A stretch of 63,011 nucleotides of DNA, counting the filler, from Porpidia crustulata (Eukaryota): NCBI GenBank assembly GCA_964255105.1. It is 10 parts of 10 records of this genome, joined end to end, with 100 filler letters (N's around TTAATTAATTAA, not from the genome) between each part and the next. Parts side by side here need not be neighbours in the genome. Positions count along the whole stretch, not along the records: positions 25,318 to 31,543 come from CAXUWE010001607.1; 9 more parts are not named here. The stretch is one strand, 5' to 3'. A program made the position numbers and the translations under genes. Shown here piece by piece: positions 11,101-58,692 of this stretch. The notes below the pieces were generated by a model that made no database searches, was not told the origin of the DNA, and was given only the letters and a program-made list of their open reading frames with translations. The first letter of the stretch is position 1; the number at the start of each line of letters is the position of its first letter.

Positions 11101-12555
11101 GCTTTTGATAAGTCGTCCTTCGATAAGTCATCTTTCGATAAAGGCTCTCTTGGCGGCCTCTTCACCAAAGTCAAACCACCTCAGCCTCAAAAATCCAAAT
11201 CTCTATTTGGAGAGGTTTCTCTTACATCTGTACCGTATTTCCCACCACCAATAAGAGTTCAAGAAAGTCCAAGGTCACCCAGTCCAGTACGATCTTTTCT
11301 ACAAGGAGACTTGCTACGATCGGCAAATGCGAGATCAGTGAGTGCTCTAGGACATCCGGCCGCAGGAACCGGCCACAGCAAAGGTGTGCCGAGAAAAACA
11401 GTTGCTGCATCAAGCTTGCAAGTTTCAGTAGAAGATAATTACAAAGAGAAACAAAATCGCGCCGCTGGTGAGCACGCCAAGAGAGCTGCCGAGGAGCAGA
11501 GTCTTAGCGACCATGAGGATGAGGAAGTTCGCGAGTTTTTAGAAACCGAAGTTCAAAGCAAGACAACACTAGACCCTTTTCTTGCTCATCAAGATTACGT
11601 TGGCAAAGTAGACAAACCTGGCGTGCCTGGCCAAATTGAAAAGGTCTTCCGAGATATCAACTCCATGATCGATACGCTAGGCCTGAATGCGCGCTCACTG
11701 AAATCTTTCGTCAAAGGTCAGAGCGAGATGTACAACCATGGCGGCCGTTCAAGAGACAACCTGGAGAATGATGGCGATTGGTGTCTTATCGAGATCGGCG
11801 ATTTGGAGGGCATTGAGAGTACTCTTTCCGAAGGTCTTGATCAAGGTCGCGTCAACGATCTCCAAGAACGTCTCCATACCTGTCAGGAACTTCGCAAAGG
11901 GCTCAGGAAATTCAAAGCAAAGGCCAGAGAGGTGGATAGATACCTCGACGCGATGTCGGACCCGGAGAAAATCAAAGCCGCGCGCCTCATTCCCCTAGAT
12001 ATAGATCAATCCGCGCTTCAAAACCGTCTACGCAAAACTTTCACACGCACCCAGAAGTTGCTCGCGGACGTGGAAGGGGAAATCACAATGTTCAAAACGG
12101 CGCTCGCCGCGCAGGATACCCGCAACGGAAAAGGAGCAGTCAAAAAACCCACCGTCGAAGCCGTCACGAACACGATCATGAAAATGACCAGAATGGCAGA
12201 GCAGAAGAGCGGCGACATCGACGTCATCGAAACCCAAATGCGACGGCTCCGTCTCCTTTCAACAACCGCCACCACCTCCGACGACGACAACGCCCTCGCC
12301 AACACCCTATCCTCCATGCGCATCTCCCACGGTCCCCGAAACACGCGCAGGAGCCTCCTGCAAACCCCCAACAAACCCAACGCCTCGTTGCGGGACTCCA
12401 TCACCAGTAACGGAACGCCGAAGAAGGGCATCAGCGACGTCACGACGGACGAGGTACAGCGGTACCGCGACCGGATGCGGCGGAGGCAGGCGGTCAACAA
12501 GGTGCTGAAGGAGGCGTTTTTGGCAAAGGATGTGGTGGTTAGGGGGCTGGAGTAG
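8133..12555 (+). CDS. NUP159: Nucleoporin Nup159/Nup146 (NUP214 family)
   Basis: N-terminal beta-propeller (VSWSTKGKQL, DTSPIGMALD), long FG/PAFG/SSFG-rich region, C-terminal coiled coil. One intron at ~8927-8974. Confidence 0.9.
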
Positions 12556-14525: not shown

Positions 14526-14966
14526 TTTGCGATTCTGGCCTGTATCATAGGTCTTCCCCCCAATGCTTAGTTCCAATGGTCAAGCTTAGCAGATGCACCT
14601 CTATTCTTCCTGATCTCACTAGGTCTATGGAAGTTATGCACCAAGCTGTCTGGCTGCTATAGGTAGCACAGAGCCTCCTAAGGGGACTTTCAACTATAGG
14701 GGAAGACAAATATTACCCTGAGGAAAATGATGTCCCAATCGAAGCTGTCTGTAGAATTTGATAAGCAAAAGGATGTCTACAAGCCAGCTATACCTTAGGT
14801 GCTTAGGAAATTGTGGAAAATGGGTAATTATGAGGTGTTCTGTGCATGAATGTTCATGTTGGCGGGGGCGAGGTGGGTTTTTTTCCGCCTTGCGAGGTCC
14901 GACTTCTTGCCTATCTCTTTGATTGCCCACACACATTTCTCCCCTCATGTGCCCATCCTACTCAGT

Positions 14967-25724: not shown

Positions 25725-26532
25725 CTAGACCTTGAAACCCCTCGATCGTCTCCTCCCACGAGCGCGCTCGAATTTCCTCCCCTTGCTCTCCACATACGGT
25801 TTCTGCCATCCCATTAGCCCAAATCATCCCAAAAACCAGACTCCCCAAGGAAAACTCACCTTGTGGCTATGCGGCCCAAACCCGAAATGCTTAACGGCCT
25901 CCCTCGAGTTCTTTGGTCCCCGCAGCAACAGCGTATTCGCTCCGGTCGGCGCTCTCAGAGCAAGCTGATCCAATGTCAGGCACTCGCCTCCGGCCTTCTC
26001 GATTCTCGCGCGCGCGGTCGCGGTATACCTCAATGCGGCGACGGTCAGCTTCGGGACGGTGAGCAGGCGGGTGTCGTCGGTGATGGTGCCGATGACGACG
26101 AGAGTCTTTTCGGGTCGGGCGAGGGTGGCGAGACGCGAAAGGGATAGGGGAGGGCGGTTGACGCGGGACATGAACAGGCGACGGAGGACGACGCGGTTGA
26201 AGGGGGAGGTTGTACGGCCTGTAATTATCGGTTCGTTAGATTTGGGATTTGGATGGTTGGGAGAAGGGCATTCCAGTCGGGGAAAACGTACGAGCTAGGA
26301 AGCGATATAGCTTGACGAGGAGTTTGAGATAGACATTGTCGCTCTTTGGCGCCTTACGATGGCTGGAGCGGACGTGATGGTCATCAAGGTCGATACCTAC
26401 AGGATTTGAGTGTTAGCTAGTGATTTGTTCTGGCGCGCTGGTAATTCGTGCTACGTAGTCATTGGAACATCATTGAAACATTGTGGCAACAGAGAGTTGA
26501 GAGTAGGTGTGTGAGATGGTCGACTTACCCAT
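25725..26532 (-). CDS. RPL18: 60S ribosomal protein L18 (eL18)
   Basis: [37 protein letters not shown]...[12 protein letters not shown]...[16 protein letters not shown]...[16 protein letters not shown]; three introns. Confidence 0.96.
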
Positions 26533-26779: not shown

Positions 26780-28410
26780 TCAAGTGTCCAAAGCCAGCCT
26801 CTGGTGCTTCCATGATTTTCTTCCAGTCCCATATTCCCCAGCGACCTGTCCATTGCCATTGATCAAATACTTGTATATCATCAGACCCTCTAATCCCACC
26901 GGACCCCGCGCATGGATCTTATTTGTACTAATTCCCACTTCTGTCCCAAACCCGAACCGCATTCCGTCAGCCATGCGCGTGCTAGTATTCCAAAAAACAC
27001 AAGCGCTATCAACTCCTGATTGAAATCGGTGCGCTGATTCTCTCGAAGTGGTGAGTATAGCATCGGTATGTTTTGATGAATGTGCGTTTATATGAGCAAT
27101 GGCCAGGTCAACAGCTTGCACTGGTGAAGGTGTAGAAGGAATGGTTTTGATGGCAAGGATAGGAGAGAGAAATTCGGTGGTATAGTCTTCTTCGGCAGAG
27201 GATTGGAGAATAGTAGATTGGTGCTTTGGGAGGGTGGTGGTCAAGGCAGCCTTGGACCGTGCGTCGCACCGGAGGGAAACACCTTGTTCCAAGAGCGCCG
27301 ATATTACACTTGTGCCTATGGATTCAAGTGCGGCTTCGTCAACAAGTAAGGTCTCAACAGCATTGCAGGCTGCAGGATAGCCGAGCTTAGCGTCTAATAT
27401 TACTTTTACACACATCGCAGTGTCGGCATCGGCTCGAATGTAGATGCTACATAGACCATCAGCATGGCCAAGGACAGGTATTCGAGTGCTATTTTTGATA
27501 TAGCGCACAAGCTCATTTGAGCCACGGGGAATGACAAGGTCGATGTATCTGTCCAGATCGAGTAGGGCAGGAACGACGTCACGTGTTGTGAGAAGTTGAA
27601 TGGAGGCATTAGGAACAGCAGTTTCTGTCAATGCCGAAGAGATGACGGTCGATATTGCTTTGAATGATTCTGTTGACTCTTTGCCGCCTGAGGATTGTAA
27701 GGATCATATTGGAGACTCCTCCGCAGTGTGTTTACATACCTTTGAGGATAGCAGCATTTCCTGATTTGATGGCCAGCGAAGCTATATTTGCAATGACCTC
27801 TGGACGTGCCTCAAATATTATAAGTAGAACTCCAATTGGGCAGCTGACTCTTTCTAGGTCAAGACCGTCATCTAATTTTGTTTTGAGGGTAATTTTTCCA
27901 ACTTGGTTTGTACAGGGTCTCTGGAAGTCATGCACCACAGTCATAAACGCTCTTCGTGATAGCACTTATCGAGCGATACAAGAGACTTGGAGAGGGTCTT
28001 AGCATCGAAGTCTCAGACTACCCCGAGGGACTGTGGTGCAGAGCTTCTCAATGACCCGGAGTACATCTAGTCAGCCTTCGCATGACCTGCCGCTTTCACA
28101 AGTCCTCACCAGGATCCTCAAGGTCCCGAACATCTAATATGCCTTGGAGCATGTCTTCCCACTTGCCCTTCCTTCCTAAATCTAATCTTTGGAGCACACT
28201 TTGACTTAGCTCCCCATTTTCGGCAGCTTTGATAGCTAGTTCTAGATCTCTTGTATTTGCAGCCAGAATATTCTCTTTCGATCTGGTCAGCGCATCATGT
28301 ATTACAGTAAGCGCACTATTTCGTGCTTCTTTTGGTAATATCGCAAGGCTTTTAGATGAAGCAGAGGCAGCTTTAGCAACCTCAAATGCGGAGGAATTTG
28401 AGAGAGACAT
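26780..28410 (-). CDS. PRO2: Gamma-glutamyl phosphate reductase (proline biosynthesis)
   Basis: [86 protein letters not shown]. Introns at 28109-27902 and ~27739-27690. Confidence 0.96.
27909..28065 (-). ncRNA. Structured intronic RNA element between branch point and 3' splice site of PRO2 intron 1
   Basis: Nested inverted repeats: tgtac/gtaca, gggtc/gaccc, gaag/cttc and a perfect 12-bp tgcaccacagtc/gactgtggtgca, with inner arms cgctc/gagcg, gata/tatc and gagactt/aagtctc. Confidence 0.6.
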
Positions 28411-49377: not shown

Positions 49378-49419
49378 GCTCTTGGCTCTTGGCTCTTGGC
49401 TCTTGGCTCTTGGCTCTTG
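49378..49419. repeat. Heptanucleotide tandem repeat (GCTCTTG)6
   Basis: Six perfect copies read directly, ~460 bp upstream of the NlpC/P60 gene. Confidence 0.95.
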
Positions 49420-49881
49420 GCCTCCGCAATTTACTATTGAGAGCTCATCAGCCATCAGCCATCAACTTTACGCCGCACTAAAAGCTTACTGCGCTCTTGG
49501 CTTTGCTGTTGTTGTGAAGAGATCTGCGCACAACGACAGTTCTGCCGTGGGCCATGTGCTCAACATCATGATTTGGTGACAGGAATACGGGGAGGCAGGG
49601 AGCTTTATCAACGCCATCTCCAGCCATGCGTCTATTCGCCCCCAATGCCAATGCTACGCCTACTATTCAGAGATGAGATGAGCGTCGTCGCCCCCATCGT
49701 CCATTTTTCATATTCAGCTTTGTATCTTGGCAGAGGTTATCAGATGGATTCGACGTTGAGAGCTACTACAAATATGGCCTCATGCACCGTTCCTTTTACC
49801 TCCACAGTCACTGAACGCTTCTTCGGCGGTTGAATTACATCTGATCAAGCTATCTGAAAATCCCCCATACTTCCATCCACC

Positions 49882-50775: not shown

Positions 50776-51341
50776 TTGTTCATACTCACATCGCTCTGCT
50801 TGGATTGTGTGTCTATGTGTTGTATAACTGACACCTGTCTCAAAGTGATCAGGTTCAGCTGCCCCAGAACTCTTACGATAGTCCAGTGTGCAAGTGTTGA
50901 GAATCTGTTCGCAAACTTAACCAAGCCCAACATACGCCCGGGCCAGCTCAAAAGCCCTATGTGGACCCAGACGTTGGAGTCAAAGGACAACGGACCAACG
51001 AGACTGCATGTTCTAAGGGCCTTTGAAGGACTGCTCGAGCATCTGCTAGACTTTAAGATTTTGTGCGTCGAGCTTGACGGTGTCAAAATTCTATCTAAAA
51101 TGAAGGCCATAACGAATCACGCCAAGATATTGAAATCCCTGATGTGCTCGACCTGCCTTGGAAGTCTGACGGCACAACTCTCATCTATGAGCTATTAGAT
51201 TTCATGGAGATACTTATTGCCTACACAGAACTTGTCCAGTTGGCGGTTGTGTTCCCACCTACGTTCCCTGAGGATTTTGTCATAGGGGACCAGAGTTTCG
51301 CTTACACTTCTTATGTCGTGAGTCACTTGATACTTTCCTAG
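50776..51341 (+). pseudogene. Possible degraded remnant of a fungal hypothetical protein gene
   Basis: Two overlapping ORF fragments with protein-like, leucine-rich composition in an AT-rich, TA-enriched contig start. No clear motif. Confidence 0.25.
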
Positions 51342-55200: not shown

Positions 55201-56169
55201 AGATATTGGGATATCACTCCGTTTGAGTATGTGACTATTGGAGAGGCTACGAAAGATCTACCAGCCTATGATGGCAAAACGGACTCTATTTTGTTTCCCG
55301 ATCATCGTCCAGTAAGACAAGTCTCGAGCCTGAATCATGTAAGGATCTCCTGTATCCCACGCTTTCCGAGAGAAATGAGCTTCGTGAAGGCTGCGAGGCG
55401 AGGTTTAATGCCACCTCCGCAATTGAAAGCTCTTCTCTCGGTAAACAAGATCAGGACTAGCATGACATCAAGGGCATGGCAACGTGTCAATCCTGACGCG
55501 TTACTACCGACAGTAAAGACAGGCGTTTCGCCTGAAGACGGTATTGCCGGGTCCTGTGTGCACTGGAATAACGACCGACTTATCACCCTAATGGAAGTTC
55601 GTCGGGCTCAAAACTTCCCGGATGAAGAAGTCATCGTTGGTACTCTGGCTAAGCAATGGAAGATAGTTGGCAACAGCGTTGCTCGCCCAGTCGCTGTTGT
55701 CCTTGGCATGTCTTTGAGAGCTGCGTGGTTGGCAAACGGCCTCCCTTCCGCCATCAGTCAAAAGCATGATCAAGATCGGTTTGCAAGATCTCCTTCACCA
55801 TCACTAAACATCTCGGGCGAACGCTCCACTTTGACTCTTTCCGAATCAGCTCAGGACAAGCGGATCTTTGAGAGCGCAACTCCTTCGTGTTCTACCGACT
55901 TCAATGAAATCGTCAAGTTATCATCCGACAGTGAACGCCCCGTTTGTGTACGTTCAGACATGTTCCAGACACAGCGAAAGCTTCAAACCCCCATCACCAG
56001 ATCGCCAACGGCCCCACATGAGACAATTGTGATTTCCTCTGACTCTGAGTCCGATGCGTCAAAGTACCTGAGTACGACTATCCGCACAAGTACCACCACC
56101 ACCGGCCAGACGACGTCGTCGGAGACACTTATTACCAAGACCACAGCTTCTCGCAAATTCAAGCCTTGA
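52249..56169 (+). CDS. dim-2: DIM-2-type DNA (cytosine-5) methyltransferase with BAH domains
   Basis: Exons 52249-52307, 52379-52754 and 52810-56169 join in frame. ELFLSDHCNC and EPNELLFT BAH regions; C5-MTase motifs DIFCGGG, AGSPCQGFS, FLENV, QSRTR, RRAQNFPD and VGNSV. Confidence 0.92.
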
Positions 56170-57453: not shown

Positions 57454-58692
57454 ATGGCGCAACAGGGTGCCCCCACGCCGAGACATACCCTCAGCGATGG
57501 CGGAATGACTGCCATCATTAATTCAACCGTCTTCTCATTCCTCGCAACAATCCTGATGGGCCTACGCTTCTACGTGCGACGAGTCAAAACAAGGGGAATT
57601 CTCGTGGATGACTGGTTAATTCTTGCCGCGCTGGTATGTCCGTCGTGAACGGTCGGGAACCCTGATTGGTGCTGGAGATTTTGGATTGACTTGCCGCTAG
57701 ATGCTGCAATGGAGTTATGTGGTTGTCGTCTTTCTATGTAGGGAGTCCAAGGAATGCTCAAGGTCGCGCACGGCAGGCTGACTTGGTGCGCAGTGGCATT
57801 TGACGGCGGCCTTGGCTGGCCGTCCGATCAGCTCACCCCCGACACCCTGGTGCGATCGAGCAAGGTACGTGCACAAGGGCCACAGGTGTTCAACAGGAGA
57901 AAAGCGCAACGGACTGATATACGTTTCCACCAGTACTCGCTTGCTGGTCAGACGAATTGGCCAATTGCGAACGCCCTTGTCAAGGTCAGCATATGTTTGA
58001 CCTTCATACGAATATTCATCACCAAACCCTTTCGTATTGCAACGACGACCGTGTACATCCTTTCCATCGCCTGGTCCATAGCGACCATCTTGGTCGGCTG
58101 GGTCATCTGCACCCCACTTTCCGAATTGTGGACAAAGGCGCCTGGGGGACATTGCGGGAACACAACAGCAGCATATATATCACTCGGGGTGTTCGACGTG
58201 TTGCTCGACATAGCGGTATTTTCGCTGCCCCTACCGATGCTCTACAAGCTACAAGTTGCGAAACACGCCAAGGTCGCATTGACGGCCACATTCGGTTTGG
58301 GACTCTTCACGATTATCGCGGGAGTCATGAGACTAGTAGCCGTCGTTCAGATAAACTATCTAATTAATTTCAACGAAGCTGAAGTGGGCGACGCATATTG
58401 GTGCGCCATTGAGTCGTCCGTGGGGATCATTGTGGCCTGTGCGTTGACACTACGCCCTTTGCTGGACCAACTGCTCGTCCTCCTGAAACGCTCCTTCGGC
58501 CAGCTTCACATCACCAACACTAGCCGTCGGACAGGAGGCCGTAAGCTTCCGAGCACGGACTTAGAGACGAATGACAATGCGTCGTTCGTAAGGCTACACG
58601 ATGATCATCAGGATCTACCTCTCGAGGGACTACATATTCCACAGAAGGCTTTTGGAGACCACACCAAAAGAGCCTCTTTTGAACATGTATGA
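57454..58692 (+). CDS. Pth11/SAT4-like rhodopsin-domain integral membrane protein
   Basis: LRFYVRR...DDWLILAAL, KVSICLTFIRIF, CTPLSELW...CG, DIAVFSLPLPML, WCAIESSVGIIVAC; three introns. Confidence 0.88.

Follow-up and report, generated by a model that had tools for sequence, protein, structure and literature searches.

A stem that may span the gap between a distant branch point and its 3' splice site in a proline-biosynthesis gene intron of lichen-forming fungi

How the 3' splice site could be found in an intron whose only recognisable branch-point motif lies far upstream of the acceptor is the question raised by intron 1 of the PRO2 gene of Porpidia crustulata. This gene encodes gamma-glutamyl phosphate reductase (also called glutamate-5-semialdehyde dehydrogenase; the equivalent of yeast PRO2) and occupies positions 26780-28410, on the minus strand, of the stretch of DNA analysed here, which is 63,011 nucleotides (nt) long, joins ten parts of the genome assembly GCA_964255105.1 and is called the window below; the gene belongs to the part taken from CAXUWE010001607.1. 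An initial annotation had proposed that a multibranch RNA structure in the intron bridges a distant branch point to the acceptor and hides competing AG dinucleotides, and that it may be a splicing-regulatory RNA: a metabolite, osmotic or temperature sensor, or the host of a small RNA. Comparison with four orthologous introns supported the bridging stem and the hidden AGs, and gave no support to the regulatory part. In our assessment, intron 1 is probably a distant-branch-point intron, in which a constitutive 'downstream stem' folds the spacer away. It reveals no new class of regulatory RNA.

The intron (27902-28109, minus strand) is 208 nt long and of phase 1. Its donor, GTGAGG, spans 28104-28109 and follows a G, whereas its acceptor lies at 27902-27903 in the context CCAAG, followed by TT. 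The predicted spliced product (...DLEDP-V-GKITLK...) could be aligned with full-length homologues over 154 of 154 residues with no gaps in three alignments, the junction LEDPVGK standing against LEDPVNK or LEDPIGK. This ungapped alignment across the junction argues for the donor at 28109 and the in-frame acceptor at 27902 proposed in the initial annotation, all coordinates of which were found to be right. Within these limits there is a single match to the branch motif CTRAY, taken as [CT]T[AG]A[CT], namely GCTGAC at 28070-28075 (minus strand), where 28071 would be the branch A. Only 34 nt separate this match from the donor, against 169 nt to the end of the intron, which agrees with its earlier description as the only good branch match and as remote from the acceptor.

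The sequence separating this motif from the acceptor is predicted to be highly structured. Folded with RNAfold, the whole intron reaches -74.9 kcal/mol (z -2.98; 1 of 200 shuffles was equally stable), and the branch-to-acceptor segment reaches -65.1 kcal/mol, with z of -5.16 against 300 dinucleotide shuffles and -5.85 in a second run; the comparison with shuffled controls that had been suggested thus finds more stability than expected by chance. The segment is predicted to form an imperfect rod of 31 pairs, built of P1 (UGUAC), P2 (GGGUC), UUG, P3 (GAAG) and P4 (UC-UGCACCACAGUC) with their partners, and enclosing 86 nt. The 5' strand of the rod is intron nt 45-81 (28029-28065, minus strand), as delimited by the minimum-free-energy folds and by the inverted repeat, and the 3' strand is intron nt 168-201 (27909-27942); the two arms make up a long imperfect inverted repeat of about 80% over 37 nt. 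The exact 12-bp helix between 27931-27942 and 28029-28040 was confirmed and, like the outer helices TGTAC/GTACA, GGGTC/GACCC and GAAG/CTTC, belongs to the minimum-free-energy fold. The inner arms described with them (gagactt/aagtctc and cgctc/gagcg) fared less well, as they appear as a suboptimal alternative, at -70.7 versus -74.9 kcal/mol when enforced.

The rod begins 5 nt past the branch A and stops 7 nt short of the acceptor AG, leaving an unpaired 7-nt tail, AACCAAG (27902-27908), which ends in the acceptor and contains the first AG 3' of the rod. There are 14 AGs downstream of the branch A: one at +4, which is too close to the branch point, 12 inside the closed structure, and the acceptor itself. 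According to the predicted ensemble, 11 of the 12 enclosed AGs carry a base with an unpaired probability of at most 0.14, and the acceptor is unpaired with a probability of 0.98. One of the enclosed AGs is that of the out-of-frame TTCCAG at 27921, in the 3' strand of the rod, which the initial annotation had named as a competitor and which would be hidden by pairing.

Orthologous introns offer an independent view of this arrangement. A profile scan of metagenome contigs with exon 3 gave 80 loci, 23 of them (L001-L023) of fungal type, onto which exons 1 and 2 were mapped and the sequence between them extracted (this region is not covered in L013). The position of intron 1 is common to 17 of these loci. 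Conventional introns of 51-182 nt are found in 13 of them (L004, L007-L012, L014, L015, L018, L021, L022 and L023), and all 13 have a CTRAY motif 7-20 nt from the acceptor. The remaining four, all taken from metagenomes of lichens, have GCTGAC or GCTGAT upstream, followed by a hairpin: L001 (212 nt), L006 (183 nt), and L002 and L003 (100 nt each). Counting the window, there are five rod-bearing introns, and in none of them does CTRAY occur within 58 nt of the 3' end; the motif is 169 nt from it in the window, 171 nt in L001, 146 nt in L006 and 59 nt in both L002 and L003. GCTGA (alignment columns G35, C36, T37, G38 and A39) is invariant in all five, and the bases flanking it vary. Together, motif and conservation suggest that GCTGAC is the branch point actually used.

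When each of the five introns was folded alone, the same layout was obtained every time: a branch motif, then 4-7 nt leading to the rod, and a further 5-7 nt before the AG. There are 31 rod pairs in the window, 45 in L001, 35 in L006, 19 in L002 and 18 in L003, the two short forms reaching -22 to -24 kcal/mol. In the same order, the branch-to-acceptor segments have z of -5.16, -4.76, -3.64, -5.31 and -4.02 (300 dinucleotide shuffles each), and 11, 26, 6, 1 and 15 of 200 shuffles were equally well defined in the ensemble. The first AG past the rod is the in-frame acceptor in 5/5 orthologues.

These introns do not come from a single group of close relatives. A maximum-likelihood tree built from exon-3 proteins places the window together with L001 and three proteins without a name (support 100/99), and in it L002 and L003 fall within Lecanorales, beside Stereocaulon and Parmeliaceae. 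L006 is a long, poorly placed branch, whose best named matches are all Lecanoromycetes (71-73%). From these placements, the rod is present in at least three separated Lecanoromycete lineages.

Sequence comparison indicates that the arms of the rod are under selection. The identities of the two arms are 87% and 77% for window and L001, 71% and 68% for window and L006, and 94% and 92% for L002 and L003. The 5' segment of the intron shows 56-62% identity (56% for window and L001), and the interior of the rod 45-52%. At fourfold-degenerate sites of exons 1-2, identity is only 41% for window and L001, 32% for window and L006, 36% for window and L002, and 65% for L002 and L003; neutral sites are thus saturated between lineages. 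The P3-P4 strands of the window and L006 are nearly identical despite the 32% at fourfold sites. Selection on the arms follows from their identity being well above that of fourfold sites, interior and 5' segment.

Pairing is maintained as well. In the five-sequence alignment, 90.1% of the 111 cells belonging to the 31 rod pairs are standard pairs, compared with 30-46% for slid partners, a control in which the rod is favoured by taking the structure from the window's own fold. MAFFT misplaced the 3' strand of P3 in L002 and L003, and those cells were counted as gaps. Five pairs have changed on both sides, a count reached by 5 of 500 shuffles; the first pair of P1, for example, goes from U-A to C-G, and one pair of P2 is U-A, U-G or C-G. 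The covariation score of 0.165 was reached by none of 500 shuffles. With all five sequences as input, RNAalifold recovered P1 and P2 (10 pairs, 5 of them compensatory); with just the long forms (window, L001 and L006), it recovered the rod in full. The comparison of orthologous introns that the initial annotation had recommended finds the layout kept in four orthologues and five pairs compensatory, with five sequences in all.

The multibranch junction, which was the centre of the original proposal, behaves differently. The interior (27943-28028, minus strand) is 52% identical between the window and L001, against a shuffle baseline of 49.8 +/- 3.0%. The enclosed length is 86 nt in the window, 51 nt in L001 and 49 nt in L006, with no common sequence or architecture, and within the interior of these long forms RNAalifold gave weak, inconsistent pairs only. 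In L002 and L003 the rod stops after P3 with a 5-nt loop, there being neither P4 nor interior. Because it is conserved neither in sequence nor in architecture, the junction is best described as lineage-specific filler; what is conserved is the rod itself, along with its placement between the branch motif and the acceptor. P4 is a case of its own, as TGCACCACAG/CTGTGGTGCA is invariant in 3/3 long forms.

One plausible mechanism would be as follows. The 157 nt between branch point and acceptor would pair into the 31-bp rod, so moving the extra RNA aside, and with the rod collapsed the branch point would be about 13 nt away from the AG. All 12 competing AGs between the +4 AG and the acceptor would be enclosed, and the first free AG after the rod would be the correct in-frame acceptor for the second splicing step. 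Most likely, the rod arose in an ancestor of several Lecanoromycete lineages, when self-complementary sequence was inserted into the branch-to-acceptor spacer or expanded there; it would later have been lengthened or shortened at its tip, the inner multibranch part being dispensable. Bridging is the simplest account, as the collapsed spacers measure 9-14 nt and the conventional orthologues have 7-20 nt. The structure, its excess stability, positional conservation, arm selection and compensatory changes were observed here, and splicing may depend on the rod.

Several points weigh against this interpretation. The splice junction is placed solely by protein homology, and the branch point solely by motif and conservation; moreover, a weak alternative branch motif, CATGAC, occurs in the window 26 nt from the acceptor. 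The five sequences represent about three lineages, window and L001, and L002 and L003, being close pairs. The covariation controls ignore relatedness, and sliding the partners by +3 also yields five both-side changes. The search for copies of the rod covered 433,203 bases (the window plus 80 loci). The 10-bp core of P4, which never varies among the three long forms, exceeds what a purely structural rod of -65 kcal/mol would need. Finally, although the minimum-free-energy path from branch point to AG is 13 nt in the window (ensemble interquartile range 13-13), an equally short or shorter path was predicted for 192 of 300 shuffles of the window's spacer, and for 5, 232, 102 and 185 of 300 for L001, L006, L002 and L003, respectively; about a third of shuffles (54-71 of 200) likewise close their ends. 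Native spacers being inseparable from shuffles in this respect, the effective distance was dropped as evidence. What carries the argument is that the fold is more stable than its shuffles, that its position is conserved and that the arms are under selection.

The presence of CATGAC leads to the question of whether the functional branch point might be a non-consensus site near the acceptor, which would make the rod irrelevant to 3' splice-site choice. Branch motifs of filamentous fungi are degenerate, and this speaks for such a site, as does the occurrence of TGAC at that distance from the AG. However, the site is not conserved, as L001 and L006 have CATGGC there and L002 and L003 lack the position, and in the window it lies inside the rod, in the internal loop between P3 and P4. 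The invariance of the upstream GCTGA in 5/5 introns, and the lack of CTRAY near the 3' end in rod-bearing introns as opposed to its presence within 20 nt in 13/13 rodless ones, also contradict this idea, which we regard as very unlikely. We attach a similarly low probability to the view that the rod plays no part in splicing, being left over as a neutral remnant from a palindromic insertion, resembling a miniature inverted-repeat transposable element (MITE), or from a symmetrical intron of the introner-like kind. Its arms are indeed a long imperfect inverted repeat, and proliferating symmetrical introns are known in Hypoxylaceae (PMC8469720). A neutral relic would nevertheless decay evenly, whereas here the arms stand far above fourfold sites and the interior and the 5' segment are at random level. 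No further copy of the rod was found in the 63-kb window or in the 370 kb of related loci, and no target-site duplication is visible at the rod. The repeat covers the branch-to-acceptor spacer alone and not the whole intron, and the intron position is ancient, being common to the 13 conventional orthologous introns.

A separate problem is whether the rod, or a part of it, has a regulatory function. The invariance of TGCACCACAG/CTGTGGTGCA in all long forms, with flanking strands nearly identical where fourfold identity is 28-32%, would suit a protein-binding site or a Dicer/RNase III-type small-RNA substrate in the P3-P4 helix, regulating PRO2 splicing or acting in trans, with bridging as a secondary matter. 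Given the stability of the rod, one mismatched pair should be close to neutral as far as bridging is concerned, which leaves the invariance unexplained by bridging. On the other hand, L002 and L003 have P1-P3 and a 5-nt loop only, so that P4 is dispensable in at least one lineage; Rfam has no match to the helix, the bases searched contain neither another copy nor a target-like match, and three sequences are too few to distinguish sequence-specific selection from compensatory evolution that proceeds slowly in a perfect GC-rich helix. We consider a sequence-specific P4 element of this kind unlikely, and it is quite doubtful that TGCACCACAG/CTGTGGTGCA with its flanking internal loop is a double-stranded RNA signal, for protein binding or small-RNA processing, to which the rod serves as scaffold; if it were, P4 would couple splicing of a proline-synthesis gene to lichen-specific regulatory input. 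A ligand-, osmotic- or temperature-sensing switch gating proline synthesis, or a small nucleolar RNA (snoRNA) host, has still less in its favour. PRO2 is a stress-relevant metabolic gene, and structured introns can be riboswitches, as with thiamine pyrophosphate (TPP) in fungi. Intronic thermosensors have also been proposed in yeasts, with precedents in UBC13 (PMC3239191) and in heat-sensitive Schizosaccharomyces pombe introns (PMC9508853). The interior junction, however, is at shuffle-level identity, is not conserved in architecture and is absent from L002 and L003. Rfam searches gave no match in intron 1 (E up to 10) or in L001, L002, L003 and L006 (E up to 1), in accordance with the lack of a TPP aptamer consensus noted in the initial annotation. 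Reading of the sequence by eye revealed no C/D or H/ACA boxes, the ACA near the 3' end being paired in P1. At a predicted -65.1 kcal/mol, and even at the values of the short forms, the rod seems far too stable, so that melting in the physiological range would be unlikely. As Rfam matches and a conserved aptamer are both absent, we find no support for a sensor or a hosted RNA, and consider these readings extremely improbable.

The distant-branch-point interpretation finds its nearest parallels in yeasts, where the usual range of branch-to-acceptor distances is taken to end at 45-60 nt. In Saccharomyces cerevisiae, stems in the COF1 and UBC13 introns are required for 3' site recognition, shortening the distance and masking AGs (Gahura et al. 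2011, PMC3239191), and the same report describes distant-branch-point introns of this yeast as conserved in sequence and pairing. It further states that artificial lengthening of the ACT1 spacer to about 120 nt abolished splicing, and that linear branch-to-acceptor distances in Saccharomyces reach up to 166 nt. More recently, Rangan et al. (2025, PMC12350175) probed 88 introns of S. cerevisiae with dimethyl sulphate (DMS) and detected 'downstream stems' in 21 of them. The PRO2 intron resembles these introns in its long linear distance (169 nt versus the Saccharomyces maximum of 166 nt), in the stable stem-loop that fills the spacer, shortening the structural distance and masking AGs (here as predicted), and in the conservation of pairing regions among relatives, with compensatory or wobble changes. 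It differs in its setting, which is not an intron-poor budding yeast but the intron-rich Pezizomycotina and their lichen-forming Lecanoromycetes. Whereas the yeast stems are conserved within one genus, the PRO2 rod has been kept past the saturation of synonymous sites. It also has a variable interior of 86 nt, and a tip that ranges from a 5-nt loop to 49-86 nt enclosed.

Like the host of the PRO2 rod, the fission yeast S. pombe is rich in introns but seldom has long spacings: of its approximately 5250 introns, about 40 have a branch-to-acceptor spacing of at least 30 nt (PMC9508853). Bridging by RNA structure is reported there for rap1 intron 2, where it was tested with compensatory mutants, and for cam1, ste4 and whi5. 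The S. pombe spacers are far shorter (39 nt in rap1 intron 2) and their structures weak, while the PRO2 rod is 4-5 times longer and very stable. Some of the S. pombe introns are, in the same report, heat-sensitive or dependent on Sde2, Cactin or Tls1. Another comparison is offered by the internally symmetrical introns and (stw)introns of Hypoxylaceae, which carry terminal inverted repeats of 45-55 nt and have proliferated (PMC8469720). These, too, are fungal spliceosomal introns with long inverted repeats able to form double-stranded RNA. The Hypoxylaceae repeats, however, extend over the entire intron, donor and acceptor included, exist in multiple copies that have proliferated recently, and occupy new intron positions, in contrast to the PRO2 repeat, which is confined to the branch-to-acceptor spacer at an ancient position and has no other copy in the bases searched.

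The PRO2 intron can also be set against fungal TPP-riboswitch introns, where its lack of an Rfam match has a further aspect. It has neither a conserved junction or aptamer core nor conserved alternative splice sites. In the TPP-riboswitch introns (RF00059), structured RNA within an intron of a metabolic gene influences access to splice sites.

If the bridging interpretation is right, structure-assisted selection of the 3' splice site, so far a matter of budding and fission yeasts, would extend to filamentous ascomycetes that form lichens and whose branch points usually lie 7-20 nt from the acceptor, in a rod held by selection for longer than synonymous sites retain signal. In the Creative Commons part of the PMC and bioRxiv literature, the phrase for distant branch points in Pezizomycotina or lichens was not found, which does not show its absence from print. 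Gene finders tuned to short fungal introns could mis-call the acceptor of this intron, and use of the masked TTCCAG would shift the frame. The natural variants of the rod, with a 5-nt loop or 49, 51 or 86 nt enclosed, would constitute a ready deletion series for examining how the spliceosome handles a bulky helix in the interval from the first splicing step to the second.

The coding part of exon 1 of the gene (28110-28410) runs from the ATG to ...LEDP and the first base of the Val codon, as judged by translation, the ungapped alignment with homologues and Pfam family PF00171. Exon 2 (27740-27901, 162 nt) begins within that V codon and was delimited by translation and homologue alignment. Intron 2 (27688-27739) is a conventional short intron of 52 nt, GTATGT...CTCAG, past which the frame runs on into exon 3 and fits the homologue consensus. 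Exon 3 (26780-27687, all on the minus strand) extends to the stop codon; its protein belongs to PF00171 and has thousands of homologues at 69-88% identity, which bear the enzyme name wherever a name is given. The best named matches are all lichen-forming Lecanoromycetes, that of Umbilicaria vellea being at the top (80%).

In five fungal-type orthologues (L005, L016, L017, L019 and L020) there is no intron at the codon position of intron 1, which points to its loss in some lineages. Two of the rodless introns, L022:715-896 (182 nt) and L023:2203-2339 (137 nt), are long, with CCTAAC or ACTAAC about 10 nt from the acceptor; their length is due to extra sequence upstream of the branch point, a solution opposite to the rod. 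In L001 (2112-2123 and 2284-2287), a CUGA following the branch A can pair with the acceptor UCAG and close over the 3' splice site, a feature specific to that locus. A GATAAG/GATACG motif (27965-27970 in the window, minus strand), which we take to resemble a GATA-factor site, aligns in the interior of all three long forms (columns 143-148), and this may be an accident of alignment. A description of intron 1 as a stwintron (nested intron) was set aside, as it has no internal CTRAY and no good internal donor was seen by eye.

A crude scan of the window for CTRAY followed by a closed stable segment and an AG gave 12 places. Of these, the PRO2 intron alone combines a donor with clear open reading frames to either side, and its z (-5.85) is the most negative; the scan thus gives no sign that such introns are common in the genome. 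The place at 12295-12494 was rejected as GC-rich coding antisense (z -0.69), and that at 49386-49462 (minus strand, z -4.1) as a tandem repeat, apparently intergenic, in which GAGCCAA units lie beside GGCTGAT units and pair with them. At 50905-51083 (minus strand, z -4.0) there is a weaker intron model with weak coding support (52/65 codons, 320-nt intron). The segment at 55330-55468 (minus strand) has z of -4.5, and a segment nested in it -4.0, with no donor found, and the nature of 57781-57896 is ambiguous.

Among sequence matches, the 3' arm of the rod has a 22-nt counterpart at 14622-14643 (91% identity; blast E 0.02, nhmmer E 0.3), which is attributed to chance and is unstructured (z +0.73); it lies upstream of a minus-strand open reading frame. 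A weak match to the CD-box family ceN65 at 27637-27680 (19.4 bits versus a gathering score of 48) is on the other strand and outside the intron. Downstream, the PRO2 gene is adjoined by a GC-rich open reading frame at 25824-26294 (minus strand), which, as recognised by eye, presumably encodes an L18e-type ribosomal protein.

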